64,000 nt of DNA from Minisyncoccota bacterium (GTDB taxonomy: Bacteria; Patescibacteriota; Minisyncoccia; Phycocordibacterales; UBA6065). The position numbers and the translations under genes were made by a program. Where the stretch lies: NCBI GenBank assembly GCA_036400935.1, contig DASWWW010000001.1, positions 118,375 through 182,374 on the forward strand, read 5' to 3'. Position 1 is the stretch's first letter. Every line of letters starts with the position of its first letter. Under the pieces are notes generated by a model. That model ran no database searches, was not told where the DNA came from, and worked only from the letters and a program-made list of their open reading frames with translations. Below, piece by piece: positions 6,418 to 23,774 of this stretch.

Positions 6418-8004
6418 ATGACTAAGAAAATCATCGTCTCGGCCCTTTTCGCAGCCGTACTCTTGGGCGGAGTCCAGAGAGCGGAAGCAATGTCTTTCTC
6501 GGAGCTTATTGAGTTTCTTATAAACGCCGGAATTATAGCGCAGAATAAGGCTGCCGAAGCTCGCGCGGCCATAGCCGTAGGCACGGGTCAGCAGTCGAAC
6601 TGCCATATGTTCAATTCGAACTTTGGGGTAGGGTCGGGCGGGCCGGACGTAGCCGCCTTGGGCAAGATCCTTGCCAAGGAGGGGCTGCGTAGCGTTGCTG
6701 GCAATTCCTATGATGAGGAAATGGCCGCTTCAGTCGTGAGCTTTCAGGCGCGCTACGGCATACCATCGACAGGATATGTTGGTCCGCTTACTAGGGCGCA
6801 TCTCAATCAGGTGTCGTGCTCGCCTGCGTCGAGCTCGAAATCTGCGCCAGCGGCCAGTTCGATCCCTGCTTCTGTTCCAGCAAAGCCGGCGGCCACTATC
6901 ATTTCCGCTCCGGTCGTGCTCGCGCCCGCGCCGGGCAGCGTTTGGGACGTAAACGGGAACTATACCGTCAAAATCCAGTTTCCATCGCAAGAATCGGGAA
7001 AAGTCGCGAAGCTTGGCCTAAGCATTTGCCCCGCAACATTTGGCAGCTGTTACATTTTGGAATCGTATGACTCGAGGCTGCCTCTCGGTCAGAATCCCAT
7101 AGCCGAAGTCCCATGGTCCTCGATCAGGGAAATGAATACGAGCATTGCTCCTGGAAAGTACAAGCTTGCCGTCGTCGTGAACGATTCCGATCACTACAAC
7201 AACATATCGGTTGATGGCGGGGAATTCACCGTGACCGGCAGCTTTACACGGCAGGCTTCGCAACAGCCGCAGCCTTCTGGTGACTCGAGCTCGATGGCAC
7301 AGGACTGGTCGGCAACGTCGTTTGTTGGATACTCTCTCGTGAGGGACCTTTCGATTGGTTCTTTGGGGCGCGACGTCGCAATCCTCCAGGATTTTCTTTG
7401 GACAAAATCTTTCTTGCAGATGAGTTCCGGCGTCGTGCACGGCTCTTTTGATCAGGCTACGGCCGATGCGCTTTCCAGGTACCAGGTTTCTGTTGGACTC
7501 TCAGCAAGCGGTTCCGTAGGATCTCTTACGAGGGCGTCTCTCAATACGGCTTTTACATCACAGGCCCCCAATTCTGTTGCCGTTCCCGCTTCAAATCCAG
7601 CAAGCAGTCCGATGCCGCAGGTGTCATGTCCTCAGTCCGTGAGTCTCCCGGGATTTACGCTCACCCTTGAGCCGTGTGAGATTGTTAATGCTTCCTTGAC
7701 CGACGAGCAAGGGGATTTGAAGTTCAAGGTAAGGATCACCGCGAGCGATCCGGGCGCTTCTTTTTCCTTCTATGCATCCTATGCCTCAACTGTCGGTTTT
7801 CCGCCCTATTCGGTTTTGATGGGATCGGGCGCCACTGTGGGCGGCGCAGAATTCGACCTGACTTTCGTTGAAGGTATGCTTTCGGCTAACGGATCTGAGC
7901 CGCGAACATATAGCGGCTATTTGCCAATAACCGTCCTCGATCCCAAGGAGAACAAAGCTTATCTTTATATGAGGCTCAACCTTACGGTAAATCCTGCGAA
8001 CTAG
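6418..8004 (+). CDS. secreted protein with two PG_binding_1 (peptidoglycan-binding) domains, inserted between rpsJ and rplC
   Basis: It has a signal peptide and a conserved N-terminal module (SFSELIEFLINAGIIAQNKAAEARAAI). It also has PG-binding-like segments (GPDVAALGKILAKEGL...GYVGPLTRAHL and GRDVAILQDFLW...VGSLTRASL). Confidence 0.75.
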   Translation: MTKKIIVSALFAAVLLGGVQRAEAMSFSELIEFLINAGIIAQNKAAEARAAIAVGTGQQSNCHMFNSNFGVGSGGPDVAALGKILAKEGLRSVAGNSYDEEMAASVVSFQARYGIPSTGYVGPLTRAHLNQVSCSPASSSKSAPAASSIPASVPAKPAATIISAPVVLAPAPGSVWDVNGNYTVKIQFPSQESGKVAKLGLSICPATFGSCYILESYDSRLPLGQNPIAEVPWSSIREMNTSIAPGKYKLAVVVNDSDHYNNISVDGGEFTVTGSFTRQASQQPQPSGDSSSMAQDWSATSFVGYSLVRDLSIGSLGRDVAILQDFLWTKSFLQMSSGVVHGSFDQATADALSRYQVSVGLSASGSVGSLTRASLNTAFTSQAPNSVAVPASNPASSPMPQVSCPQSVSLPGFTLTLEPCEIVNASLTDEQGDLKFKVRITASDPGASFSFYASYASTVGFPPYSVLMGSGATVGGAEFDLTFVEGMLSANGSEPRTYSGYLPITVLDPKENKAYLYMRLNLTVNPAN

Positions 8005-8010
8005 TTTGAG

Positions 8011-8040
8011 AAAGCCGCCCGCAAGAGCGGCTTTTTCTTT
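8011..8040 (+). terminator. rho-independent terminator
   Basis: The hairpin AAAGCCGCCCGCAAGAGCGGCTTTTT follows the stop. Confidence 0.7.
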
Positions 8041-8066
8041 GACAAATGCTGCTAGAAGAGTAGTCT
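8039..8066 (+). promoter_or_regulatory. promoter-like TTGACA-16-TAGTCT
   Basis: It lies upstream of the ATG at 8079. Confidence 0.35.
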
Positions 8067-8078
8067 ACATACCGGCAC

Positions 8079-8447
8079 ATGAAGCAAAAAATAGCGGTCA
8101 TTGACTACCAATTGGGTCGGCTCGAGCCTCTGCGCCAGCTGCTCGCAGGCGCTGGGTATGAGGTGCTCCCGATCCTTATCGAGGAGGGAACGTACTACGA
8201 ATCGATAAATAAGGTAAAGGTGTTCGGTCCGGATCTTATCCTGACGGTGCATGTCCTCGGTATCGACGGCGTGAACGGCAGCCACGTATCGCGTGCGCTC
8301 GACTTGCCCAAAACCAGGCTCGTGGGCACTGACGAAAGCAAGGTGGCACAGCCGTACTGCGCGGCACGGTTCGATATCAAGGGCGTGCACGCTTCGGACA
8401 GTTCCAAGCGCAAGTTCATAGCCTTCATCAAAGCGGCCCTCTCCTAA
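8079..8447 (+). CDS. small CheY-like pseudo-receiver domain protein that lacks the phospho-acceptor Asp
   Basis: It has a receiver-like beta-alpha pattern (KIAVIDYQ...GPDLILTVHVLGIDG...LVGTDES...K). The position aligned with CheY D57 is Val, and the acidic pair is DY instead of DD. A terminator hairpin at 8433..8464 overlaps the stop. Confidence 0.5.
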   Translation: MKQKIAVIDYQLGRLEPLRQLLAGAGYEVLPILIEEGTYYESINKVKVFGPDLILTVHVLGIDGVNGSHVSRALDLPKTRLVGTDESKVAQPYCAARFDIKGVHASDSSKRKFIAFIKAALS

Positions 8448-9952: not shown

Positions 9953-10435
9953 ATGGCGCTATTTGGACAAAAAACAAAGGTAAACGACTCTTCGGCTGAG
10001 AAGGCTCAGTCAACGAAGGATAAGTCTTCAAAGAAAGCACTTATCAAGAAGACTCCAGTAAAGGCAGAGAAGCTTCCTAAGGCTGAGAAGGTGGCAGAGG
10101 CAAAGACCAAGGAGAAGAACAAGTCGGAGAAGCGCGCTGAGGCCGCTGCCGGCGTATCGTTCCCTAAGGGTTCTGCAGTCATCAAGCCCCGCGTAACCGA
10201 GAAGTCAGGACTCCTTTCACAGAAGGGAATCTACACGTTCGACGTTCGCGTAGACGCTAACACCCGCCAGATCGCGGCCGCTATCGTCGCGGCTTACAAG
10301 GTGACCCCTGTAAAGGTCTCTATCGCTCCTGTTCCTGCAAAGGCCATGTTCGTCCGCGGCAAGTCAGGCTCGACTTCTGCAGGCAAGAAGGCCTACGTCT
10401 ACCTCAAGAAGGGCGACACTATCGAATTCATCTAA
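9953..10435 (+). CDS. rplW: 50S ribosomal protein L23 with a long Lys-rich N-terminal extension
   Basis: The C-terminal L23 core is present at the expected operon position. Confidence 0.88.
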   Translation: MALFGQKTKVNDSSAEKAQSTKDKSSKKALIKKTPVKAEKLPKAEKVAEAKTKEKNKSEKRAEAAAGVSFPKGSAVIKPRVTEKSGLLSQKGIYTFDVRVDANTRQIAAAIVAAYKVTPVKVSIAPVPAKAMFVRGKSGSTSAGKKAYVYLKKGDTIEFI

Positions 10436-11381: not shown

Positions 11382-11912
11382 ATGGAAAACAATACACATC
11401 AGAACGCATTTACTCAGGCTAATCCGGCTTCAGCCCCGGCGTCAGTCGCTCCAGCTTCTGGCAAAAGCTCTTTCTGGAAGGGCGTAGCGGTCGGTGCGGT
11501 AGGCATAGTCGTGCTCATGATCCTCGTCTCTATCCTTGCGGCAGGCTTTGCCTACTCGAGGGTCCAGCCCGCCCTCAACAATGCCCAGATCAAGGGCAAT
11601 CTTGCGGCGGTGCGTGCCAATCTCTCCAATCTGCGTGCCGAGGCCGAGGTGTATTATGACCGCAATAACGGCTCGTACGCGGGAGTCTGCAGGAGCGACA
11701 ATTTCGATGCTACCCTTAATAGCATCGTGTCGCCGATCGCTCTCAACGGTGACGTTATGTGCGCCGCTAACGCCCAGGAATACATTGCCGCGGCGACCGT
11801 TCAGGATGTCGACGGCATAAGGATGGTCTGCGTGGACAGCACGGGCGCAGCGACCTCTAATTTTGGAAGGGCGAAGGACCATTTCGCGGCGGAAAAAATG
11901 ACCTGCAACTAG
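11382..11912 (+). CDS. N-terminally anchored pilin-like protein (a type IV pilin-like helix with a C-terminal Cys pair but no prepilin cleavage motif), inserted between rplB and def
   Basis: A long TM helix is followed by a pilin-like segment (AAVRANLSNLRAEAEVYYDRNNGSYAG) and C-terminal cysteines (MCAAN...MVCVD...MTCN). There is no G/FTLIE class III signal. Confidence 0.5.
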   Translation: MENNTHQNAFTQANPASAPASVAPASGKSSFWKGVAVGAVGIVVLMILVSILAAGFAYSRVQPALNNAQIKGNLAAVRANLSNLRAEAEVYYDRNNGSYAGVCRSDNFDATLNSIVSPIALNGDVMCAANAQEYIAAATVQDVDGIRMVCVDSTGAATSNFGRAKDHFAAEKMTCN

Positions 11913-11913
11913 C

Positions 11914-12474
11914 ATGAGCAAGCAGAAGCCGACACTCTTGCGCATCGCCGAAATAGGAAACCCGGTCCTTCGCGCTATCGCGGCCCCTGTCGCCGATCCG
12001 AAGGCTCCCGAGATCCAGCACCTGATCGACAGCATGATAGCGACGTGCGCCGAGCAGGGAGGTGTCGGCATGGCCGCACCTCAGGTGCATGAGTCATCCC
12101 GCCTGATGATCATCGCCTCTACGCCCACTCCGGCGTATCCGGACGCGCCGAAGGTAAAGCCCTTTGCCGTCATAAACCCGGAGCTTATCGCTTCGTCGAA
12201 AGAGACAGAGCTCGGCTGGGAAGGGTGCATGAGCGTGCCCAATATCCGCGGGCAGGTGGATCGCAACGTGTGGGTGAAGGTTAGCTATACCGACCGTGCG
12301 GGCAAAAAGACCCAAAAGCGCTTTACTGGCCTCATCGCTCGCATATTCCAGCACGAGCTCGATCATTTGAACGGCCTCTTCTTCCTCGATCGGGCGAATC
12401 CAAAGACGCTCGTATCGAATGCGGAGTTCCAGAAGATTATGGCTAAGGGTAAGAAACCTAAGAATAAGAAATAA
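11914..12474 (+). CDS. def: peptide deformylase
   Basis: The GVGMAAPQ, EGCMS and QHELDHLNG (HExxH) motifs are present. Confidence 0.92.
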   Translation: MSKQKPTLLRIAEIGNPVLRAIAAPVADPKAPEIQHLIDSMIATCAEQGGVGMAAPQVHESSRLMIIASTPTPAYPDAPKVKPFAVINPELIASSKETELGWEGCMSVPNIRGQVDRNVWVKVSYTDRAGKKTQKRFTGLIARIFQHELDHLNGLFFLDRANPKTLVSNAEFQKIMAKGKKPKNKK

Positions 12475-12476
12475 TC

Positions 12477-12902
12477 ATGAAATTCCTCCTCAATACCTCG
12501 GAAAAGATAGGGAACTTCGGCTTTTGGCGCATCCTTACCAATTTCTGGACGGTAGTGTTCTATATCGCCATCACGTACGATTTCTTTTCTCATAACGCCC
12601 TCGATGAGAATCACATAATCCTCGCGGTCGCTGGAATATACTGTGCGTCGCTCGCCATCTACAGCGCCGAGAAGGAATTCCGCCGCTGGCATCACATGCA
12701 TCAGACTATGCACCCGGGTGAGATGTACGCCTTGCTCTGGACGCTTTTCATAATCGCGCTCATCACCGCCCAGGTCACGACAGGCGTCGAATATCACATG
12801 CCGCCGGAAGTCAGCGCCTCGTACATCGCCGTGATCTCGATCTTGGCCCTCACGCGCGAGTCTAAGAACATGTATAAGAGGAAAGGAGGGAAGAGGAATT
12901 AA
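12477..12902 (+). CDS. small integral membrane protein (hypothetical, about 4 TM)
   Basis: It has hydrophobic segments, and its start overlaps the def stop (ATAATCATG). Confidence 0.5.
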   Translation: MKFLLNTSEKIGNFGFWRILTNFWTVVFYIAITYDFFSHNALDENHIILAVAGIYCASLAIYSAEKEFRRWHHMHQTMHPGEMYALLWTLFIIALITAQVTTGVEYHMPPEVSASYIAVISILALTRESKNMYKRKGGKRN

Positions 12903-13096: not shown

Positions 13097-13450
13097 ATGA
13101 CACGATCACTCTCAAAAGGCCCTTACGTAGACGAACGCGTTCTCGCAAAGATCGCAGGAAAGAAGCCACAGGAAACTGGGGTTATTAAGACTTGGTCACG
13201 AGCATGCCACATCTCTCCTGAGATGGTCGGCTTTAAGTTCGGCGTACATAACGGCAAAGACTTCATCGAGGTATTGGTGGCAGAGGACATGGTGGGCCAC
13301 CGACTCGGTGAATTTTCTTTGACCCGAAAGTTCTCGAAGCACGGAGGAAAGATGCAGAAGGAGCTCGAGATGAAGAAGAAGGAGAGCGAGGTCGCGGCAG
13401 CTCAGGCGGCAAAGGGCGCGGCTACTGATAAGAAGGCAGCAGCAAAATAA
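13097..13450 (+). CDS. rpsS: 30S ribosomal protein S19 with a Lys/Ala-rich C-terminal extension
   Basis: The S19 core (GPYVDERVL...HNGK) is present. Confidence 0.93.
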
Positions 13451-14507: not shown

Positions 14508-14518
14508 TTTACACATAT

Positions 14519-14944
14519 ATGCTCGTCCCTAAAAAAGTAAAATACCGAAAGTGGCATGTGATGCGAAAGAATCCTTCGAAGGTAGGATTCGAGACTCGCG
14601 GCACGCTCCTCTCATTCGGATCATTCGGCCTCAAGGCAACGACAGCAGAGCGAATCCGCTCTGAGCAGATCGAGTCTGCCCGAAAGGTCATCTCTCGAGA
14701 GGTCGGCAAGAACGGCAAGATCTGGATCAGGATCTTCCCAGACATGCCTTACACCCAGAAGCCAGCCGAAGTAAAGCTCGGAAAGGGTAAGGGAGACCTC
14801 GCAGGATACTGCGCTCCGGTAAAGCCGGGCCGAGTACTGTTCGAAGTCGACGGCGTAGACGAGGCTGTCGCTCGAGAAGCTCTCCGAAAGGGCGCTACCA
14901 AGCTTCCTACGAAGTGCATCATCGTAACTCGCGAACTCCTCTAA
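14519..14944 (+). CDS. rplP: 50S ribosomal protein L16
   Basis: L16 homology (KYRKWHV...) is present. Confidence 0.93.
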   Translation: MLVPKKVKYRKWHVMRKNPSKVGFETRGTLLSFGSFGLKATTAERIRSEQIESARKVISREVGKNGKIWIRIFPDMPYTQKPAEVKLGKGKGDLAGYCAPVKPGRVLFEVDGVDEAVAREALRKGATKLPTKCIIVTRELL

Positions 14945-14955
14945 TCCACACATAT

Positions 14956-15252
14956 ATGTCTCTATTTACTAAGAAAACAAAAGAAAAGAAGGCGGTAGCG
15001 GCCAAGGCAGAGGTAAAGGTTACCGAGCCAAAGCAGCTCACGGGCATCGTCACATCTACCAAGATGAAGGACACCATCGTCGTCCGAGTGAACCGATTCG
15101 TAAAGCACGCAAAGTACGAGCGATTCGTGAAGATCTCGAAGAAGTACAAGGCTCACGACGCGGGCAACACCAAGAAGGAAGGCGAGACCGTTACCATCGT
15201 CGAGTGCGCTCCGATCTCAAAGGACAAGCACTTCAAGGTCCTTGCCGCATAA
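14956..15252 (+). CDS. rpsQ: 30S ribosomal protein S17 with an N-terminal extension; it follows rplP directly, with no rpmC in between
   Basis: The S17 core (GIVTSTKMKDTIVVRV...) is present. The ATG at 14956 is chosen over the ORF start at 14914, which overlaps rplP. Confidence 0.9.
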   Translation: MSLFTKKTKEKKAVAAKAEVKVTEPKQLTGIVTSTKMKDTIVVRVNRFVKHAKYERFVKISKKYKAHDAGNTKKEGETVTIVECAPISKDKHFKVLAA

Positions 15253-15273
15253 TAATTTTTAACAACAACTCCC

Positions 15274-15645
15274 ATGCTACAACCACGCTCAATAGTCCAG
15301 ATCGCCGACAACTCAGGCGCCAAAGTAGGCCGCATCTTCAAGGTGCTCGGATCTGCCGCAAAGCGCTATGCGTACATCGGAGACATCGTAGTGCTCTCGG
15401 TCCAGAAGGCGGAGCCTCGAAAGTCCGTTAAGAAGAAGGACGTCCTCCACGCGGTAGTCGTTCGCTCTCGAAACGCTACAAAGCGAGCTGACGGCTCATA
15501 CATCCGCTTCGACGAGAACGCGGTAGTTATCCTCGAAAAGACCAAGAAGGAGCCTCTCGCAGGACGCGTATTCGGTCCTATCCCACGCGAGCTCGCTGAA
15601 ATGGGCTTCCAGACTATCGCTTCTCGAGCTGCAGAAATCGTATAA
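15274..15645 (+). CDS. rplN: 50S ribosomal protein L14
   Basis: L14 homology (MLQPRS.V.IADNSGAK) is present. Confidence 0.95.
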   Translation: MLQPRSIVQIADNSGAKVGRIFKVLGSAAKRYAYIGDIVVLSVQKAEPRKSVKKKDVLHAVVVRSRNATKRADGSYIRFDENAVVILEKTKKEPLAGRVFGPIPRELAEMGFQTIASRAAEIV

Positions 15646-15662
15646 CCTTCATCACCAAATTT

Positions 15663-15881
15663 ATGCATATCAAAAAAGGAGATAAGGTAGTGGTACTCGC
15701 GGGAAAGGATAAGGGCGCGACAGGCGAAGTCCTCGCGGCTTTCCCAAAGGAGAACAAGGTCATCGTTTCAGGCGCTAACAAGTCCAAGCGACACCTCCGA
15801 CCTACGAAGCAGGGCGGAAAGGGCCAGGTGGTAGAGAAGGAGATGCCTCTTCACGCTTCGAACGTAGCTCTCAAGAAATAA
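15663..15881 (+). CDS. rplX: 50S ribosomal protein L24 (short form)
   Basis: The KOW motif (IKKGDKVVVLAGKDKG) is present. Confidence 0.9.
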   Translation: MHIKKGDKVVVLAGKDKGATGEVLAAFPKENKVIVSGANKSKRHLRPTKQGGKGQVVEKEMPLHASNVALKK

Positions 15882-15899
15882 TTCCCTTAACGCATTATT

Positions 15900-16448
15900 A
15901 TGAAAACTCTCAAAGAAAAGCAGGCAGACGCATACGAGGTGATGAAGAAGCAGTTCGGCTTCACCAACGCGATGCAGGCTCCAAAGATCCTCAAGGTTGT
16001 CGTCTCTGCGGGCGTCGGATCTTTCGGCGACAAGAAGAAGGTAGAACTCGCTGGCGACCGATTGATGAAGATCACCGGTCAGAAGGCTGTCCTTCGCGGC
16101 GCGAAGAAGTCTATCGCTTCGTACAAGAGCCGAGAAGGCGATCCTATGGGCTACCAGGTCACCCTCCGAGGCGCAAAGATGTGGCACTTCCTCGAGAAGC
16201 TCGTCAACATCGCTCTCCCTCGAACAAAGGACTTCCGCGGACTCCCATCTACATCGGCTGATGGAATGGGCGGATACTCTATCGGAATCAAGGAGACCTC
16301 TATTTTCCCTGAGTGCTCTGAAGAAGAGTTGAAGGACGTATTCGGCCTCGGCATTACTGTCGTAACGAACGTAAAGCCGAAGGATCAGACAAAGAAGTTC
16401 CTCGAGCTCCTCAATTTCCCGATCAAGAAGGTAGAAGCATCAAAATAA
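15900..16448 (+). CDS. rplE: 50S ribosomal protein L5
   Basis: L5 homology is present. Confidence 0.93.
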   Translation: MKTLKEKQADAYEVMKKQFGFTNAMQAPKILKVVVSAGVGSFGDKKKVELAGDRLMKITGQKAVLRGAKKSIASYKSREGDPMGYQVTLRGAKMWHFLEKLVNIALPRTKDFRGLPSTSADGMGGYSIGIKETSIFPECSEEELKDVFGLGITVVTNVKPKDQTKKFLELLNFPIKKVEASK

Positions 16449-16463
16449 ATCTCAAAAAGTAGA

Positions 16464-16492
16464 AAAAGCCACCTCGAACAGGTGGTTTTTTC
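16464..16492 (+). terminator. rho-independent terminator after rplE
   Basis: The hairpin is AAAAAGCCACCTCGAACAGGTGGTTTTTT. Confidence 0.75.
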
Positions 16493-16499
16493 TTGCCTA

Positions 16500-16527
16500 T
16501 TGACTATTTTATGATATGTGCTATAGT
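16500..16527 (+). promoter_or_regulatory. promoter TTGACT-16-TATAGT firing into the non-coding island
   Basis: A consensus-like hexamer pair sits immediately after the terminator, and no credible ORF lies downstream. Confidence 0.45.
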
Positions 16528-16534
16528 GCACAGG

Positions 16535-17145
16535 CCAGATTAGTGATGCGTAGATAGGTGCCGGACATTCGAGCCCGCCTGTCGAAATCAGCGAATCGGT
16601 ATTTGGACCTGTTATTGGGAATGTATATGGTCCAAATGCTAGCGTTCCCACACATCTAGTCAGACAGCCAATGATCGCTCGGAAGATGTGTTGCTCTTTG
16701 GAAGATGACGGATTAGCGAGTGATCTAGCGCATGAATAAGACCGGTTGCTTACACTTTGGGACCGGAACCCCACTTAGTCATGTTGAATCGTGATAGCGT
16801 TTGACGTCTTGGCTTCTCGGACGTCTGAAACGGCTTGAGGACAAAAAGATGGCTTCTTCTTCGCGAAAGCCTACTTGTCGCTGCGACGAGAATATACATT
16901 AGAGCGAAGTCTGCAGCTTCTGCAGATTTGCCCGAAAGGGCAGAAAGGGGGCGTGTCACCATGTGTGCCACGCTCTTTTACGTTATGGTACGACTTTACT
17001 TAGGTAAAAATTGATGAGGTGTTCATCCCTTCCTCCCTATATTTCGCCTGAATAGGGGCTCACGGAGGCCGGCGGGCCGAGCGTGAAGGCGTTCCGTCCA
17101 TCGGAACGACCTGGACCCTAGGCAGGCGAAATATAGGGAGGAAGT
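16535..17145 (+). ncRNA. candidate structured non-coding RNA or regulatory island between rplE and rpsZ, identity unknown
   Basis: About 600 nt have no protein-like ORF. A 22 bp perfect inverted repeat (CTTCCTCCCTATATTTCGCCTG at 17019..17040 and CAGGCGAAATATAGGGAGGAAG at 17123..17144) encloses a GC-rich structured loop. Further hairpins are present (GACGTC..GACGTC, CTGCAGCTTCTGCAG). It has its own upstream promoter. Confidence 0.3.
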
Positions 17146-17150
17146 GGGGT

Positions 17151-17179
17151 TTGACACCTCGCAATTCATTTGCTAGTAT
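17151..17179 (+). promoter_or_regulatory. sigma70-like promoter TTGACA-17-TAGTAT for rpsZ-rpsH-...-secY
   Basis: It is identical in architecture to the promoter at 12944. Confidence 0.55.
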
Positions 17180-17227
17180 GCCCAGACAAGCTTTTTTCAA
17201 GGCTTTTTTATTTACATCAGGGAAAAA

Positions 17228-17413
17228 ATGGCAAAAACATCAGTAATAGCGCGGTCACAGAAGAAACCAAAGTTCTCTACGAGGACTGTACGACGATGCT
17301 TCCGCTGCGGCCGAAAGAACGGCTTTATGCGAGATTTCGGAGTATGCCGAATCTGTTTCCGCGAGCTTGCTAACGACGGCCTCATCCCTGGTATAAAGAA
17401 ATCGTCTTGGTAG
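17228..17413 (+). CDS. rpsZ: 30S ribosomal protein S14 type Z (zinc-binding, 61 aa)
   Basis: It has the CxxC...CxxC pattern ([20 protein letters not shown]). Confidence 0.93.
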
Positions 17414-17487
17414 ACATTATTATTTAGGCAGTAGGGCGCGGGTGAATGCATAAAACCACCACAGCCGCGAACTAGACGCTAAACAAC

Positions 17488-17877
17488 ATGCAAGATTCAA
17501 TCTCACATCTCATCATTCAGATAAAGAACGGCTCCGCTGCAAAGAAGGAGACCGTCACCATGCCGCACTCGAATTTCACCGAGTCTGTCGCCATGGCTCT
17601 CGCTCGAAAGGGCTACGTAAAGCCAGCCGTTAAGAAGGGCAAGGGCGTCCAGAAGTCGATCGAGATCGGCCTCATCTACGTCAACGGCGCGGCTCGCGTC
17701 AACGACGTAAAGCGCATCTCGAAGCCTTCGAAGCGACTTTACAAGGGCTATTCTGAGATCCATCAGGTAAAGCAGGGCTACGGCTCTACCTTCGTCTCTA
17801 CTCCAAAAGGCATCCTTTCGGACGATGAGGCGCGCAAGGAAAAGGTCGGCGGCGAGGTACTCTTCCAGATCTGGTAA
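17488..17877 (+). CDS. rpsH: 30S ribosomal protein S8
   Basis: S8 homology is present. Confidence 0.92.
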   Translation: MQDSISHLIIQIKNGSAAKKETVTMPHSNFTESVAMALARKGYVKPAVKKGKGVQKSIEIGLIYVNGAARVNDVKRISKPSKRLYKGYSEIHQVKQGYGSTFVSTPKGILSDDEARKEKVGGEVLFQIW

Positions 17878-17901
17878 TATTTCATATTTAACAAAACTTC
17901 T

Positions 17902-18429
17902 ATGTCACGCGTTGCAAAAAAACCAATCGTAATACCAGAGAAGACTACCGTCTCTTATGACAACGGTACTGTCACCGTAAAGGGCCCTATGGGCGAGATG
18001 GTCCGTGCTTTCAAGCAGGGAGTCGATTTCAAGATCGAGAACGGCGCAGTCGTAGTGTCTCTCAAGCGACCTGAGGACTACATGCTCGTCGGCACCTATG
18101 CTTCTCACTTGAAGAACATGATCAAGGGCGTTACCGCCGGCTTCACCAAGAAGCTCATCATCGAGGGAATCGGATTCAAGTCCGACGTAAAGGGAACCAA
18201 GCTCGACCTCGCTCTCGGTTTCTCGCACCCAATCTCTCTTCCTATCCCAGCAGGCCTCAAGGTAACTGCGGAGAAGAACGTTGTCACTATCAGCGGCGTC
18301 TCGAACGAGGCCGTAGGCGAGTTCGCATCGAAGATCCGAGCCTTGAAGAAGCCAGAGCCGTACAAGGGCAAGGGTATTCGCTACGAGGGCGAAGTTATCA
18401 GGCGAAAGCAGGGTAAGAAAGCCGCGTAA
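17902..18429 (+). CDS. rplF: 50S ribosomal protein L6
   Basis: L6 homology is present. Confidence 0.93.
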   Translation: MSRVAKKPIVIPEKTTVSYDNGTVTVKGPMGEMVRAFKQGVDFKIENGAVVVSLKRPEDYMLVGTYASHLKNMIKGVTAGFTKKLIIEGIGFKSDVKGTKLDLALGFSHPISLPIPAGLKVTAEKNVVTISGVSNEAVGEFASKIRALKKPEPYKGKGIRYEGEVIRRKQGKKAA

Positions 18430-18447
18430 TCTGATTAAACTATATTT

Positions 18448-18795
18448 ATGGCAAATCCTAACATTAAGAGGCAGAAGCGAGTGCGACGACACGTCAAGAT
18501 CCGAACAAAGGTTTCGGGTACTGCCACCATGCCTCGACTCGCGGTATTCCGCTCTAACAAGTTCATGTACGCTCAGCTCATCGATGACGTAGCTGCAAAG
18601 ACTCTCGTCTCTGCCTCTTCTCTCGAGTCTAAAGGCAAGAAGTCCGAGGCTGCGTTCGCGGTAGGAAAGGAGATCGCAAAGAAGGCTCTCGCCCTCAAGG
18701 TAGAGACCGTGATCTTCGACCGAGGAGGCTTCGGATACAAGGGCCGAGTAAAGGCCCTCGCAGACGGCGCACGAGAAGGCGGGCTTAAGTTCTAA
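18448..18795 (+). CDS. rplR: 50S ribosomal protein L18
   Basis: L18 homology is present. Confidence 0.92.
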
Positions 18796-18803
18796 ATTAT
18801 TAT

Positions 18804-19418
18804 ATGAATCCAGAAACAACAACTAATACGGCAGCAGCTCCAGTCGCACCAGCGGCTCCTGCAACCCAGGCTCCAGGCGCTTTCGACAATCGCGTTCCTC
18901 GCGGCGCGCGACCAGGATCACGCGGCCCACGAAAGCCAGACTCTCGCGCTCCTCGCGCAAAGCCTGAGTACGACAGCGTCATGCTCAACATCCGACGCGT
19001 ATCTCGAACCGTTTCTGGCGGACGACGATTCGCATTCTCAGTAGCTCTCGTCGCAGGAAACCGAAAGGGACTCGTAGGCGTAGGCCTCGGAAAGGCGGGC
19101 GACACAGCTCTCGCGATCGACAAGGCTACCCGAAACGCAAAGAAGAACATGGTCAAGGTAAACGCGACCAAGGAGATGTCTATCCCTCACGAAGTGTCTG
19201 CAAAGTACTCTTCGGCTCGCGTAACCGTACGACCTGTTAAGGACCGAGGCCTCGTAGCCGGATCGGCTTGCCGAACCGTGCTCGAGCTCGCCGGCCTTAC
19301 GAACGTCGCCGCAAAGATCATCTCTCCTTCAAAGAACAAGCTCAACATCGCTCGCGCTACTATCATGGCTCTCGAGGGGCTTACTCTCAGCCGACCTACT
19401 TCGTCGAAGAAAGCATAA
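18804..19418 (+). CDS. rpsE: 30S ribosomal protein S5 with an Ala/Pro/Arg-rich N-terminal extension
   Basis: The S5 dsRBD and C-terminal domains are present. rplO follows directly, with no rpmD. Confidence 0.92.
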   Translation: MNPETTTNTAAAPVAPAAPATQAPGAFDNRVPRGARPGSRGPRKPDSRAPRAKPEYDSVMLNIRRVSRTVSGGRRFAFSVALVAGNRKGLVGVGLGKAGDTALAIDKATRNAKKNMVKVNATKEMSIPHEVSAKYSSARVTVRPVKDRGLVAGSACRTVLELAGLTNVAAKIISPSKNKLNIARATIMALEGLTLSRPTSSKKA

Positions 19419-19433
19419 TTTAATACCAATCAT

Positions 19434-19877
19434 ATGAAACTTCACGATCTAAAGAGGAAGACGCCTAACTACAAAGCAGCCCAGGTGGGACGCGGAGGAA
19501 AGCGAGGCAAGACATCGGGCCGAGGAACGAAGGGACAGGACTCCCGATCGGGCCACAAGAAGCGCCCAGAGCTTCGAGACTTCATCAAGAAGGTTCCGAA
19601 GATGCGAGGACGAGGAAAGAACTCCTTCAAGTCATTCGCTGAGCGAGCTACCGTAGTTCCATTGTCGGCTATCGACAAGGTCTACAAGGACGGCGAGCGA
19701 GTAGAGCCGGCAACCCTCGTAAAGAAGGGACTTGTCGAGCGAACCGAAGGAAATTTCCCGCGAATCAAGATCCTCCTCTCAGGAGAAATTACAAAGAAGG
19801 TTACCGTTTCCGGCGTCGAGATCTCAGCATCGACAAAGGCGGCGATCGAGAAAGCAGGCGGCACAGTTCACGCTTAA
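19434..19877 (+). CDS. rplO: 50S ribosomal protein L15
   Basis: L15 homology is present. Confidence 0.92.
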   Translation: MKLHDLKRKTPNYKAAQVGRGGKRGKTSGRGTKGQDSRSGHKKRPELRDFIKKVPKMRGRGKNSFKSFAERATVVPLSAIDKVYKDGERVEPATLVKKGLVERTEGNFPRIKILLSGEITKKVTVSGVEISASTKAAIEKAGGTVHA

Positions 19878-21220: not shown

Positions 21221-21415
21221 TATCCCTTCTGGACTCGTTAGAGAACACACAAAACCGATCCGGCGATCGGTTTTGTTCTGTCCTCGGCTCGCATCCGTCA
21301 AGGACAGACCGTTGACGGAACCGTGCTGCTCGCCTGCGGAGTTTCTCTAACGAGTCCGGAAGGGCAACTGTGTCGCTTTGCTGCAATCAGGGACGGTGGT
21401 AGAGTTGGAGAAGCG

Positions 21416-21724
21416 ATGAAAACCTTGTTCCTGTCGGTGTTACTGACGGTATTGCCGCTTCAAGCGTTGTCTGCCCAGACTACCGAAAAGCCCATTGAGA
21501 GGATCGGCGAAGTAAAGAAGGAGGTGATCCTCATTTATGAGGGAGTTACCTACAGAATTTGCGTCTCGGGCCGCGCATTCCATTCAAGGGCGGTTCAGAA
21601 GTTGACGAAAGACGGTGCGTGGGAGTCGGCAAGCGATAAGGAGGAGAAGATGCTCAAGGAATTAGGCTCAGACCTTTCCATGGCATCGGTTAAGGGCCAG
21701 CTCCTATTCTTCAAGAAAAAATGA
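21416..21724 (+). CDS. small secreted protein (hypothetical) inserted between secY and adk
   Basis: The ATG at 21416 has a GGAGAAG RBS and a signal peptide (MKTLFLSVLLTVLPLQALSA). Terminators flank both sides. Confidence 0.5.
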   Translation: MKTLFLSVLLTVLPLQALSAQTTEKPIERIGEVKKEVILIYEGVTYRICVSGRAFHSRAVQKLTKDGAWESASDKEEKMLKELGSDLSMASVKGQLLFFKKK

Positions 21725-21795
21725 AGTTTTACCAAGCCTCTCTGCACCACGCAAAGAGGCTTTTTTATTTTCCGGGATCGGGTAGACTGTAGTTC

Positions 21796-22383
21796 ATGCA
21801 TCACACACTTATCTTCATAGGCAAATCGGGGACCGGAAAGGGGACCCAGGTAAAGCTTTTGGAAAAATACCTCTCGGCAAAGGATCCTAACACCCCGATA
21901 ATCCCTCTGGAGACCGGCGACTTCCTGCGCCAGTATTTCGCGAGCGGCACGTACTCGAGCGAGATATCGAAAAAGATCACGGAATCGGGTGGCCTTCAGC
22001 CAGAATTCATAACAGTAAACATGTGGTCGAACTTCCTCCTGAAGTTCATGAAGCCGGACACGCACATTTTCGTCGACGGAACGCCTCGTAGGCTTCATGA
22101 GGCCGAGGTTTTCGATTCAGCGGTCAGGTTTTATGATCGCAAGAATCCCGTCGTGATCCTTATCAACGTGCCTCAGGACGTTCTGACCGAGCGCCTTATG
22201 AAGAGGGGACGCACCGACGATACGGTTAGCGGCATCAAGAAGCGCATGTCCTGGTTCGAGGAGAATGTCATGCCGTGCGTTGAATACTACAGGAACAACC
22301 CTCACTACAAGTTCGTAGAGATCGACGGCGATCAGACTGTCGAGTCGGTGCACGCCGATATCCTTAAGGCTATTGGAATTTAA
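21796..22383 (+). CDS. adk: adenylate kinase-like P-loop kinase
   Basis: It has the GKSGTGKGTQ P-loop and sits at the canonical position after secY. Confidence 0.8.
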   Translation: MHHTLIFIGKSGTGKGTQVKLLEKYLSAKDPNTPIIPLETGDFLRQYFASGTYSSEISKKITESGGLQPEFITVNMWSNFLLKFMKPDTHIFVDGTPRRLHEAEVFDSAVRFYDRKNPVVILINVPQDVLTERLMKRGRTDDTVSGIKKRMSWFEENVMPCVEYYRNNPHYKFVEIDGDQTVESVHADILKAIGI

Positions 22384-22386
22384 ATA

Positions 22387-23157
22387 ATGGCAATTAACAT
22401 CAAAAAACCCGAAGAGATAGAGATCCTGCGCGAAGGAGGGAAGCGCCATGCTTTTATATTGAAGGAGCTTTCAAAGATGGTAGCTCCCGGAGTCTCGACA
22501 AAGGACATCGATGACGCGGCGGCCAAAATGATCGCCGAGGGCGGCGACACGTCGGCCTTCCTCAACTACAAGCCGTACGGCGCAAAGAGGCCGTTCCCGG
22601 CATCGATTTGCATGTCGGTAAACGATGCGGTCGTTCACGGCATTCCGAACGAGACGCCGTATATTCTCAAGGAGGGCGATATCGTCACTCTCGACATTGG
22701 CCTTGTCCATAAGGGTATGATTACCGATGCCGCCGTAACCTTGCCTGTGGGCAAGGTGGACGCCGATTCGGCGCGACTTTTGAAGGATACGAAGCAGGCC
22801 TTGGCCCTAGGCATAAAGGCGGCTAAAGGAGGCAATACTACGGGCCATATAGGAGAGGCTATAGAGCTCTATATTGGCCCTAAAGGCTATGGAATCGTCG
22901 AGGAGCTCGCTGGGCACGGCGTAGGCTATAAAGTGCATGAAGACCCGTATGTGCCCAATTACGGCATTGCAGGCGAGGGCGACAAATTGGTCCCTGGAAT
23001 GGTCATTGCTATCGAGCCGATCGTCAATTTGGGAACAGAGAAGATAAGGCTCGACAAGGACGGCTATACCTACAGGACAGCGGATGGCAGGAATAGCGCT
23101 CATTTCGAGCATACCGTCGTCATTACCGAGAAGGGCTGCGAAGTGCTTACTCAATAA
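22387..23157 (+). CDS. map: methionine aminopeptidase type I
   Basis: It has the MetAP fold with the metal ligands D, D, H, E, E. Confidence 0.92.
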   Translation: MAINIKKPEEIEILREGGKRHAFILKELSKMVAPGVSTKDIDDAAAKMIAEGGDTSAFLNYKPYGAKRPFPASICMSVNDAVVHGIPNETPYILKEGDIVTLDIGLVHKGMITDAAVTLPVGKVDADSARLLKDTKQALALGIKAAKGGNTTGHIGEAIELYIGPKGYGIVEELAGHGVGYKVHEDPYVPNYGIAGEGDKLVPGMVIAIEPIVNLGTEKIRLDKDGYTYRTADGRNSAHFEHTVVITEKGCEVLTQ

Positions 23158-23168
23158 ATAATTTACAT

Positions 23169-23774
23169 ATGCATCCAAAGAAAGAGCGAACGCTTGTATT
23201 CGTGAAGCCTGACGGTGTTCAGAGGTCTCTTGTGGGCGAGATTATCGGGCGCTTTGAGAGGATCGGACTAAAGATGGTCGCCCTGAAGATGGCGGCGCCT
23301 TCGCTTGATTTTGTCGAGAAGCACTGCACGCTCGATTCCACATGGAAGCACAATGTGGGCACGAAATCCATAAAGGCATATACGGACAAGGGCGAGCAGC
23401 ACCCTGCGGGCAGCGATCCTTTGAAGGTTGCCGACATCATCCTGAACAAGCTCAAGAAGTATCTGACCAGCGGGCCTGTGGTCGTTATGGTCCTGGAGGG
23501 CGCTCACGCCGTATCCGTAGTCCGCAAGCTCGTCGGCTCGACTGAGCCTCTGTCGTCAGATGTCGGAACTATTCGCGGAGACTTTGTCCTCGATTCGTAT
23601 TTCATGTCGGATGTGGACAAGAGGGCGGTGCGAAATTTGATCCATGCGTCAGGGTCGCCAGCAGAGGCCGAGATGGAGATAGCGCACTGGTTCTCGAAGG
23701 ATGAGGTTATTGACTATCGTCACGTTCAGGAGAAGATCCTCTATGATGTGAATATGGACGGGAAGACTGAATAG
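23169..23774 (+). CDS. ndk: nucleoside diphosphate kinase (long form with an insertion)
   Basis: It has the KPDGV motif and the NLIHASGS..AE.EI..WF active-site region. Confidence 0.8.
   Translation: MHPKKERTLVFVKPDGVQRSLVGEIIGRFERIGLKMVALKMAAPSLDFVEKHCTLDSTWKHNVGTKSIKAYTDKGEQHPAGSDPLKVADIILNKLKKYLTSGPVVVMVLEGAHAVSVVRKLVGSTEPLSSDVGTIRGDFVLDSYFMSDVDKRAVRNLIHASGSPAEAEMEIAHWFSKDEVIDYRHVQEKILYDVNMDGKTE

Follow-up and report, generated by a model that had tools for sequence, protein, structure and literature searches.

A Paceibacteria clade in which rpmC, the gene for ribosomal protein uL29, is absent between rplP and rpsQ

The Candidate Phyla Radiation (CPR) as a whole lacks uL30 (Brown et al. 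2015, as cited in Tsurumaki et al. 2022, bioRxiv 10.1101/2022.01.07.475337), and some Peregrinibacteria are without L29 and L32 (Tsurumaki et al. 2022; review PMC9698310); in the accessible part of the former report no lineage of the Parcubacteria is named for L29. More generally, L29 is among the frequently lost proteins of the ribosomal surface, being the only one missing in 'Ca. Uzinura diaspidicola' and 'Ca. Walczuchella monophlebidarum' and missing together with L30 in 'Ca. Fokinia solitaria' (Nikolaeva et al. 2021, bioRxiv 10.1101/2021.01.31.429008). Here we describe a stretch of 64 kb (hereafter the window), part of a contig of at least 206 kb, which contains part of an S10-spc ribosomal protein cluster with neither rpmC, the gene for uL29 (L29), between rplP and rpsQ, nor rpmD, the gene for uL30 (L30), between rpsE and rplO. 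The first of these proteins is part of the docking platform at the tunnel exit that serves trigger factor, the signal recognition particle and SecYEG. The gap at rpmC is a fixed trait of a sizeable monophyletic clade of Paceibacteria and is not peculiar to this genome; lineage-specific loss of this type has been described before, and for the lineage concerned we found no report of it.

The L16-S17 and S5-L15 junctions in the window and in related loci

Judged by the homologues of its S17 and L23, the source organism is a member of the Paceibacteria (Parcubacteria, CPR/Patescibacteria), in agreement with the original reference to CPR-type lineages. Both proteins are 100% identical to proteins of metagenome-assembled genomes (MAGs) named 'Candidatus Paceibacterota bacterium', and the labels of the 80 best genome loci are mostly those of CPR bacteria (Parcubacteria, Paceibacterota, Taylorbacteria and many TPA MAGs mislabelled 'Saccharibacteria'), with some reading only 'bacterium'. 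An exact-sequence look-up of the L16 of the window matched no record. These 80 loci, each comprising 10 kb on either side of S17, were obtained by scanning a single genome for each GTDB species. Six-frame translations, running from stop to stop with a minimum length of 25 residues, were made of the window and of every locus retrieved. The search seeds were the L29 of Escherichia coli, Bacillus subtilis and Thermus thermophilus and the L30 of E. coli and B. subtilis; a hidden Markov model (HMM) of L29 was then built iteratively from 60 L29 proteins of the Paceibacteria relatives, and all members of a 33-sequence subset of these that was checked against Pfam matched PF00831.

The genes and spacers located below as parts of the cluster, from rplW to rplO, are on the plus strand. 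In the window, rplP (uL16; 14519..14944, 141 residues, stop codon TAA at 14942-14944) matches PF00252 over its full length (E=4e-43; 146.9 bits against a cut-off of 27.9), and rpsQ (uS17; 14956..15252, 98 residues, ATG at 14956) matches PF00366 over residues 30-96 (E=1e-25; 90.1 bits against a cut-off of 25.9), residues 1-29 lying outside the domain. The 98-residue S17 read from this ATG is identical to the deposited S17 of a 'Candidatus Paceibacterota' MAG (P0001), and an alternative start, GTG at 14914, is disfavoured by the conservation of the MSLF N-terminus across relatives. The spacer between the two genes measures 11 nucleotides (nt) (TCCACACATAT, 14945..14955) and occupies the site at which, in 60 of the 80 related loci, an L29 scoring 46-112 bits against the HMM lies directly between L16 and S17. 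The absence of L29 from its canonical position is thereby confirmed, as is the view that no tiny open reading frame (ORF) was missed there, since the spacer is too short for an L29 of about 57-75 residues and yields no match to the L29 HMM in any frame. The same ACACATAT stands immediately 5' of the ATG of rplP (14508-14518) and of rpsQ (14945-14955), without a Shine-Dalgarno-like purine run; the relatives have A(C/T)ACATAT.

Searches throughout the window gave the same result. The L29 HMM found no match in any frame of the 64 kb, the best hit (E = 7.9) being noise. Pfam confirmed the neighbouring L23, S3, L14, L24 and L18; among about 50 further proteins of the window it detected L20, L35, IF3, S10 and EF-Tu, and neither L29 nor L30. 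With respect to a possible fusion of L29, it returned only the expected domains for L23, S17 and L16, and at E<=1 no match was obtained for the extensions at the N-termini of L23 and S17 or for the small ORFs between rplE and rpsN. Like a profile comparison by hhalign, these searches gave no sign of an L29 hidden in another frame or fused to a neighbour.

At the second junction, rpsE (uS5; 18804..19418, 204 residues, stop codon TAA at 19416-19418, PF00333 and PF03719) and rplO (uL15; 19434..19877, 147 residues, ATG at 19434, PF00828 with E=1e-13) are separated by 15 nt (19419..19433), at the site that holds rpmD, an ORF of about 60 residues, in most non-CPR bacteria. The L30 seeds matched nothing in the window or in the 80 related loci (phmmer, E<=10), and S5 and L15 are adjacent, with spacers of 2-214 nt, in every related locus that holds both rpsE and rplO (about 65 loci). 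The absence of rpmD is a published, CPR-wide condition, and its absence from the window would simply follow from the lack of uL30 in the entire CPR. The original prediction, which had described the loss of L30 as known for CPR-type lineages, is in this respect borne out both by the literature and by every S5-L15 junction examined.

An assembly error, a frameshift or an overlooked gene could in principle conceal rpmC or rpmD. The spacers are only 11 and 15 nt long and the six-frame search with the HMM is negative; moreover, an artefact of assembly is excluded by an independent assembly (Logan SRR11449186, locus L081), which has an identical gene order and the same L16-S17 and S5-L15 junctions. 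The same L16-S17 junction also recurs in 19 other loci, namely 17 GTDB representatives and two metagenomic contigs. We found no support for an artefact, to which we assign a negligible probability, and regard this explanation as effectively refuted. The boundaries first given for the four genes (rplP ending at 14944, rpsQ starting at 14956, rpsE ending at 19418 and rplO starting at 19434) are exact, and Pfam confirms the identity of each.

The remaining 20 of the 80 related loci are without L29 and have L16-S17 spacers of 6-81 nt, which range from 6 to 36 nt in the main L29-less clade. When 12 ribosomal proteins are concatenated (1673 columns) and a neighbour-joining tree is built from them, the window groups with 17 GTDB species representatives (L001-L016 and L043) in a single L29-less clade of 18 members, whose sister lineage (L023/L025) retains L29. 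Two further L29-less lineages, one formed by L051 and L060 and the other by L068, are nested separately among genomes with L29; all three key nodes have a bootstrap of 100/100. The distribution is equally sharp in terms of identity to the window over L16, the S17 core and L14: at 84% or more, all 20 loci (the window included) are without L29, and at 82% or less every listed locus possesses it. The metagenomic contigs L162 and L164, which are members of the clade, also show the adjacency of L16 and S17, and the S17 proteins of the clade, clustered at 90% identity, form about 80 groups. The absence of uL29 is hence common to a phylogenetically coherent lineage, as attested by the 18 members, the full bootstrap support and the clean split in identity, and L29 was lost at least three times in the sampled loci. 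The original prediction had called the absence of L29 less usual. The gap itself is confirmed; on the other hand, it is clade-wide and recurs in two other lineages of the Paceibacteria, and it is less surprising than was assumed because lineage-specific loss of uL29 in the CPR has already been published.

Loss or relocation of rpmC and the vacated site

Taken together, the best explanation is that uL30 is absent as in all CPR, that rpmC was deleted once, in the common ancestor of the Paceibacteria clade, leaving rplP to abut rpsQ, and that the organisms of this clade most likely build 50S subunits without uL29; we hold this combined account to be likely. Ribosomes of this kind are plausible because uL29 has a peripheral position on the ribosome and because its dispensability has been documented. 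For a genuine loss of rpmC, taken by itself, our confidence is high. We infer the absence of the gene from the rest of the genome on the basis of the 64 kb of the window and of about 330 kb flanking the 20 L29-less loci of relatives, in which the L29 HMM likewise found no match.

The alternative, which was correctly posed at the outset as a choice between a relocated gene and a genuine loss, is that rpmC left the S10-spc cluster for another place in the genome, so that the ribosome retains uL29. Certain features of the data weigh against loss and in favour of this possibility. Of a contig that measures at least 206 kb, 64 kb are in view, and in the relatives 10 kb on either side of S17, leaving room for a moved or divergent rpmC. 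The cluster is also prone to rearrangement, with foreign genes between S10 and L3 and between L2 and S19, with an L5-S14 spacer that varies from 19 to 4082 nt, and with its infA-to-rplQ part not downstream of map. The negative searches of the window and of the flanks argue against relocation, as do two comparisons with L29 proteins beyond the sampled genomes. A metagenome scan with a query alignment of 8 sequences showed that the 80 metagenomic genes whose L29 best resembles that of the sister lineage all lie directly upstream of S17, none being free-standing, and none of the adjoining S17 proteins carries the N-terminal motif of the clade (see below). Likewise, of 32 database clusters of L29 nearest to the sister L29, none comes from a contig equal in length to one of the L29-less clade. 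Both comparisons detect only an L29 that still resembles that of the sister lineage, which again counts against the case for loss. Given, in addition, the threefold recurrence of the loss in the sample and the documented loss of L29 from complete CPR genomes, we consider a relocation of rpmC to be quite improbable.

A related issue is whether the vacated site has been filled. S17 is a protein of the 30S subunit and for this reason cannot fill a site on the 50S subunit. The uL23 protein, in contrast, is a direct neighbour of uL29 on the ribosome, and in the window rplW (9953..10435, 160 residues) encodes a form in which PF00276 covers residues 75-159, preceded by an N-terminal extension of about 75 residues (9953-10183) that is rich in Lys, Ala and Glu and starts MALFGQKTK. 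This Lys-rich extension might functionally replace uL29, either as an analogue or as a cryptic fusion. It is longest in the main L29-less clade, with 62-79 residues in all members with data, about 37 in the sister lineage and 0-60 elsewhere, and it includes a conserved segment, EKRAAAA-GV-FPKGSAVI. Its similarity to the L29 profile is nevertheless negligible (hhalign probability 0.2%), and Pfam detects no domain in it. An AlphaFold2 model based on 85 homologues predicts a confident L23 core, and for the extension low confidence at residues 9-52 (predicted local distance difference test below 50) and a weak helix at 51-65 only, with no helical hairpin. Moreover, N-terminal additions to L23 occur in part of the CPR (Tsurumaki et al. 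2022), and extensions starting with MALF are found in many Paceibacteria that possess L29, the L23 having 121-122 residues in the sister lineage and up to 152 elsewhere. Because it is present in L29-containing lineages, the extension predates the loss of L29. The other L29-less lineages show no extra lengthening of L23, which in L060 has 131 residues, as in its L29-containing relatives, and in L068 has 91 residues and no extension; a single evolutionary event underlies the correlation. A functional replacement is accordingly unlikely, and the extension is rejected as a mimic of L29. The earlier suggestion that an N-terminal extension of S17 or L23 might compensate for the absence of L29 finds no support, in view of the 30S location of the former and, for the latter, of the predicted disorder, the lack of resemblance to L29 and the age of the tail. 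The L23 tail may, all the same, be draped over the vacated uL29 site.

The uL24 of the window (rplX, 15663..15881), likewise a protein of the tunnel exit, is a short form of 72 residues, in which Pfam recognizes the KOW domain and positions 2-33 of the 65 in the ribosomal_L24 profile, about half of that C-terminal domain profile being absent. A link of this short form to the loss of L29 was considered and rejected, as many lineages with L29 also have a form of 71-76 residues.

The N-terminus of uS17

The S17 proteins of the L29-less clade begin with the pattern M-[AS]-[LI]-F-x-K-K-[TS], represented in the window by MSLFTKKTKEKK, where the conserved stretch M[AS][LI]F-x-KK[TS] corresponds to codons 1-8 of rpsQ (MSLFTKKT, 14956..14979). 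Variant starts within the clade are MFTKKT, MFGKKT and MATLNKKT; those of relatives with L29 are MKKT, MATKK, MEKK and similar. A related, broader N-terminal pattern opens 80 of the 120 best S17 clusters. Across 81 loci, whose six-frame translations amount to 1.86 million residues, the strict pattern M[AS][LIE]F..K[TS] occurs only in S17 (14 times), L23 (5) and L29 (4), and all 14 occurrences in S17 belong to the L29-less clade. When the N-termini of the clade S17 proteins were compared by means of a position-specific scoring matrix (PSSM), they scored -4.0 bits against S17 of L29-containing lineages, as opposed to +6.6 bits against the N-termini of L29. On this evidence the N-terminus of the clade S17 is foreign to S17.

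The N-terminus of L29 itself provides one potential source. The L29 of Paceibacteria begins M-[KS]-[ED]-[FLY]-x-[KN]-K-[TS], and the sister lineage, of which three members were sampled, has an rpmC that opens with MKDLIKKT(T/K)E and an rpsQ that opens with MKKT(T/S). The two genes share an in-frame stretch (rpmC codons 6-9, rpsQ codons 2-5) of 13 nt in L023 (AAAAAAACAACAG) and of 9 nt in L167; the KKT codons common to both genes are broken up at the nucleotide level in L165. An in-frame deletion between the KKT-coding direct repeats (rpmC codons 6-8 and rpsQ codons 2-4) would have removed the bulk of rpmC, and the start codon of rpmC with its first five or so codons would survive as the new N-terminus of S17 (MSLFT-KKT...). 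The idea is supported by the predicted recombinant, MKDLI-KKTTAEK, which has KKT at residues 6-8, exactly as does MSLFT-KKTKEKK of the window. The first eight codons of rpsQ are in this sense a candidate scar of the deleted 5' end of rpmC.

Several observations weigh against such a scar. Residues 1-4 of the clade S17 equal the M[AS]LF of L23, and the S17 N-terminus as a whole is closer to that of L23 than to that of L29, as reflected in a PSSM score of +10.3 bits against the extended L23 N-termini of L29-containing lineages. The longest word shared by the 5' ends of rpmC and rpsQ averages 6.8 nt in L29-containing Paceibacteria, compared to 4.7-7.0 nt in control gene pairs; both 5' ends are A-rich and encode Lys-rich sequences of low complexity, in which short matches arise easily by chance. 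Furthermore, L163, a genome with L29, has an S17 starting MFNKTTKK. Because of the greater likeness to L23, the repeats no longer than in controls and the A- and Lys-rich composition, the derivation of the S17 N-terminus from a deletion of rpmC between KKT repeats is proposed only tentatively. The 5' repeats of rpmC and rpsQ are rejected as a general deletion hot spot, as they are no longer than the controls and a long in-frame repeat is present only in the sister lineage.

A comparably tentative alternative is that M[AS][LI]F-x-KK in S17 is a functional short motif that was copied from, or converged on, the N-terminus of uL23 and is not a remnant of rpmC. Its timing relative to the loss of L29 would then be coincidental or indirect, for instance through a new translation-initiation region acquired once the coupling to rpmC was lost. 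Apart from the identity of the first four residues (M-S/A-L/I-F) and the higher PSSM score, this is favoured by strong purifying selection in both proteins, with L3 and F4 conserved to at least 90% in 85 homologues of L23 and the pattern kept in 80 of the 120 S17 clusters; the codons vary synonymously, which places the selection at the level of the peptide. Yet the S17 motif is confined to the clade in which the adjoining upstream rpmC was deleted, the register of KKT at residues 6-8 fits the L29 of the nearest L29-containing lineages and the predicted recombinant, and no mechanism connects rplW, 4.9 kb upstream, to the 5' end of rpsQ. The two origins might also be combined, if a microhomology deletion fused the start codon and about five codons of rpmC to rpsQ and the resulting pentapeptide subsequently evolved into a signal of the uL23 type, M[AS][LI]F-x-KK; this sequence of events is rather doubtful. 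Should it be true, every S17 of the clade carries a fossil of L29, and the motif points to an undescribed functional N-terminal element shared by ribosomal proteins.

In the window, uL23 (9953-9979) and uS17 (14956-14982) share M-[AS]-[LI]-F-x-[KQ]-K-[TS] followed by a Lys-rich tail, and the same holds for L001-L016 and L043. None of the other genes of the window, of which about 60 were examined, starts with this motif.

Cluster organization and comparison with known cases of uL29 loss

The cluster displays additional peculiarities outside the two junctions. Its S10 operon is broken at two places, between rpsJ and rplC (6418-8447), where a 528-residue secreted protein and a 122-residue ORF are found, and between rplB and rpsS (11382-12902), which are separated by a 176-residue protein predicted to have a membrane helix, peptide deformylase (def) and a 141-residue membrane protein. 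A weak PG_binding_1 match is reported for the gene in L081 that is identical to the one for the 528-residue protein. The uS19 protein has a Lys/Ala-rich C-terminal tail (13370-13450), and uS5 a Pro/Ala/Arg-rich N-terminal extension of about 59 residues (18804-18980). In the region 3' of secY (21221-23774), a 575-nt gap holding a 133-residue ORF without a family is followed by adk, map and ndk, and the usual infA-rpmJ-rpsM-rpsK-rpsD-rpoA-rplQ continuation is not found there, that is, not downstream of map. At a greater distance, ARAGORN calls a tRNA-Ile with the anticodon TAT (UAU) at 49245-49319. A tRNA-Ile of this kind is uncommon in bacteria and would imply decoding of AUA without lysidine. 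It is overlapped by a NUDIX ORF (49236-50048, as picked by the gene finder), whose real start must therefore lie further downstream.

Between rplE and rpsN there is a 780-nt gene-free spacer (16449-17227), in which searches for RNA genes and small ORFs gave no match to Rfam or Pfam. A terminator-like hairpin with a T-run lies just after rplE (about 16467-16497) and is followed by a sigma70-like promoter, TTGACT-16-TATAGT, at 16500-16527; a second promoter, TTGACA-17-TAGTAT (17151-17179), is kept together with its leader in many members of the clade. By virtue of this hairpin and the two promoter-like sites, the spc operon of the window is apparently divided between two transcription units. About 500 nt of the spacer are unique to this species (fold z = -2.4), only the last 200 nt or so being conserved. 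It also contains a near-perfect palindrome of about 125 nt (17023-17150), which folds into a long branched hairpin (-85 kcal/mol, z = -10) and has related copies at two separate sites in the related genome L002 (about 7815-8020 and 12611-12666); it looks like a dispersed palindromic repeat of the kind of miniature inverted-repeat transposable elements (MITE) or repetitive extragenic palindromes (REP). In Paceibacteria the L5-S14 spacer is a hot spot for insertions: across the 80 loci it ranges from 19 to 4082 nt, as against less than 30 nt at most of the remaining junctions.

The loss of uL29 is recurrent within the Paceibacteria, and the present clade is a second, well-delimited CPR lineage, joined by two smaller ones, among the few bacteria whose natural ribosomes are without this protein. 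It bears on estimates of genome completeness and on marker-gene phylogenies that count L29, and the L29-containing sister lineage and the L29-less clade offer a natural series for the study of remodelling at the exit site. If the chimera of rpmC and rpsQ were real, it would furnish a datable example of the disappearance of a ribosomal protein gene. None of this overturns the current understanding, as lineage-specific losses of ribosomal proteins in the CPR, including that of L29, have already been published.

In relation to the CPR-wide absence of uL30 the window shows no difference, S5 being likewise next to L15 with no rpmD. The closest counterpart with respect to uL29 is its loss in Peregrinibacteria, which is also the case of a CPR lineage without rpmC in an otherwise conserved S10-spc cluster. 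Here, however, the affected organisms are relatives within the Paceibacteria/Parcubacteria labelled Taylorbacteria or Paceibacterota, and the absence has been mapped to one well-supported clade and two independent losses, with a candidate deletion scar in rpsQ. With the endosymbionts the clade shares a reduced genome and natural ribosomes that are without uL29, or without both uL29 and uL30. The former are obligate intracellular symbionts of eukaryotes from other phyla, while the latter includes many environmental CPR species of groundwater and freshwater. Finally, as in the experimental knock-outs of L29 in model bacteria, the ribosome would work without uL29, but in these Paceibacteria this is an evolutionarily fixed state.

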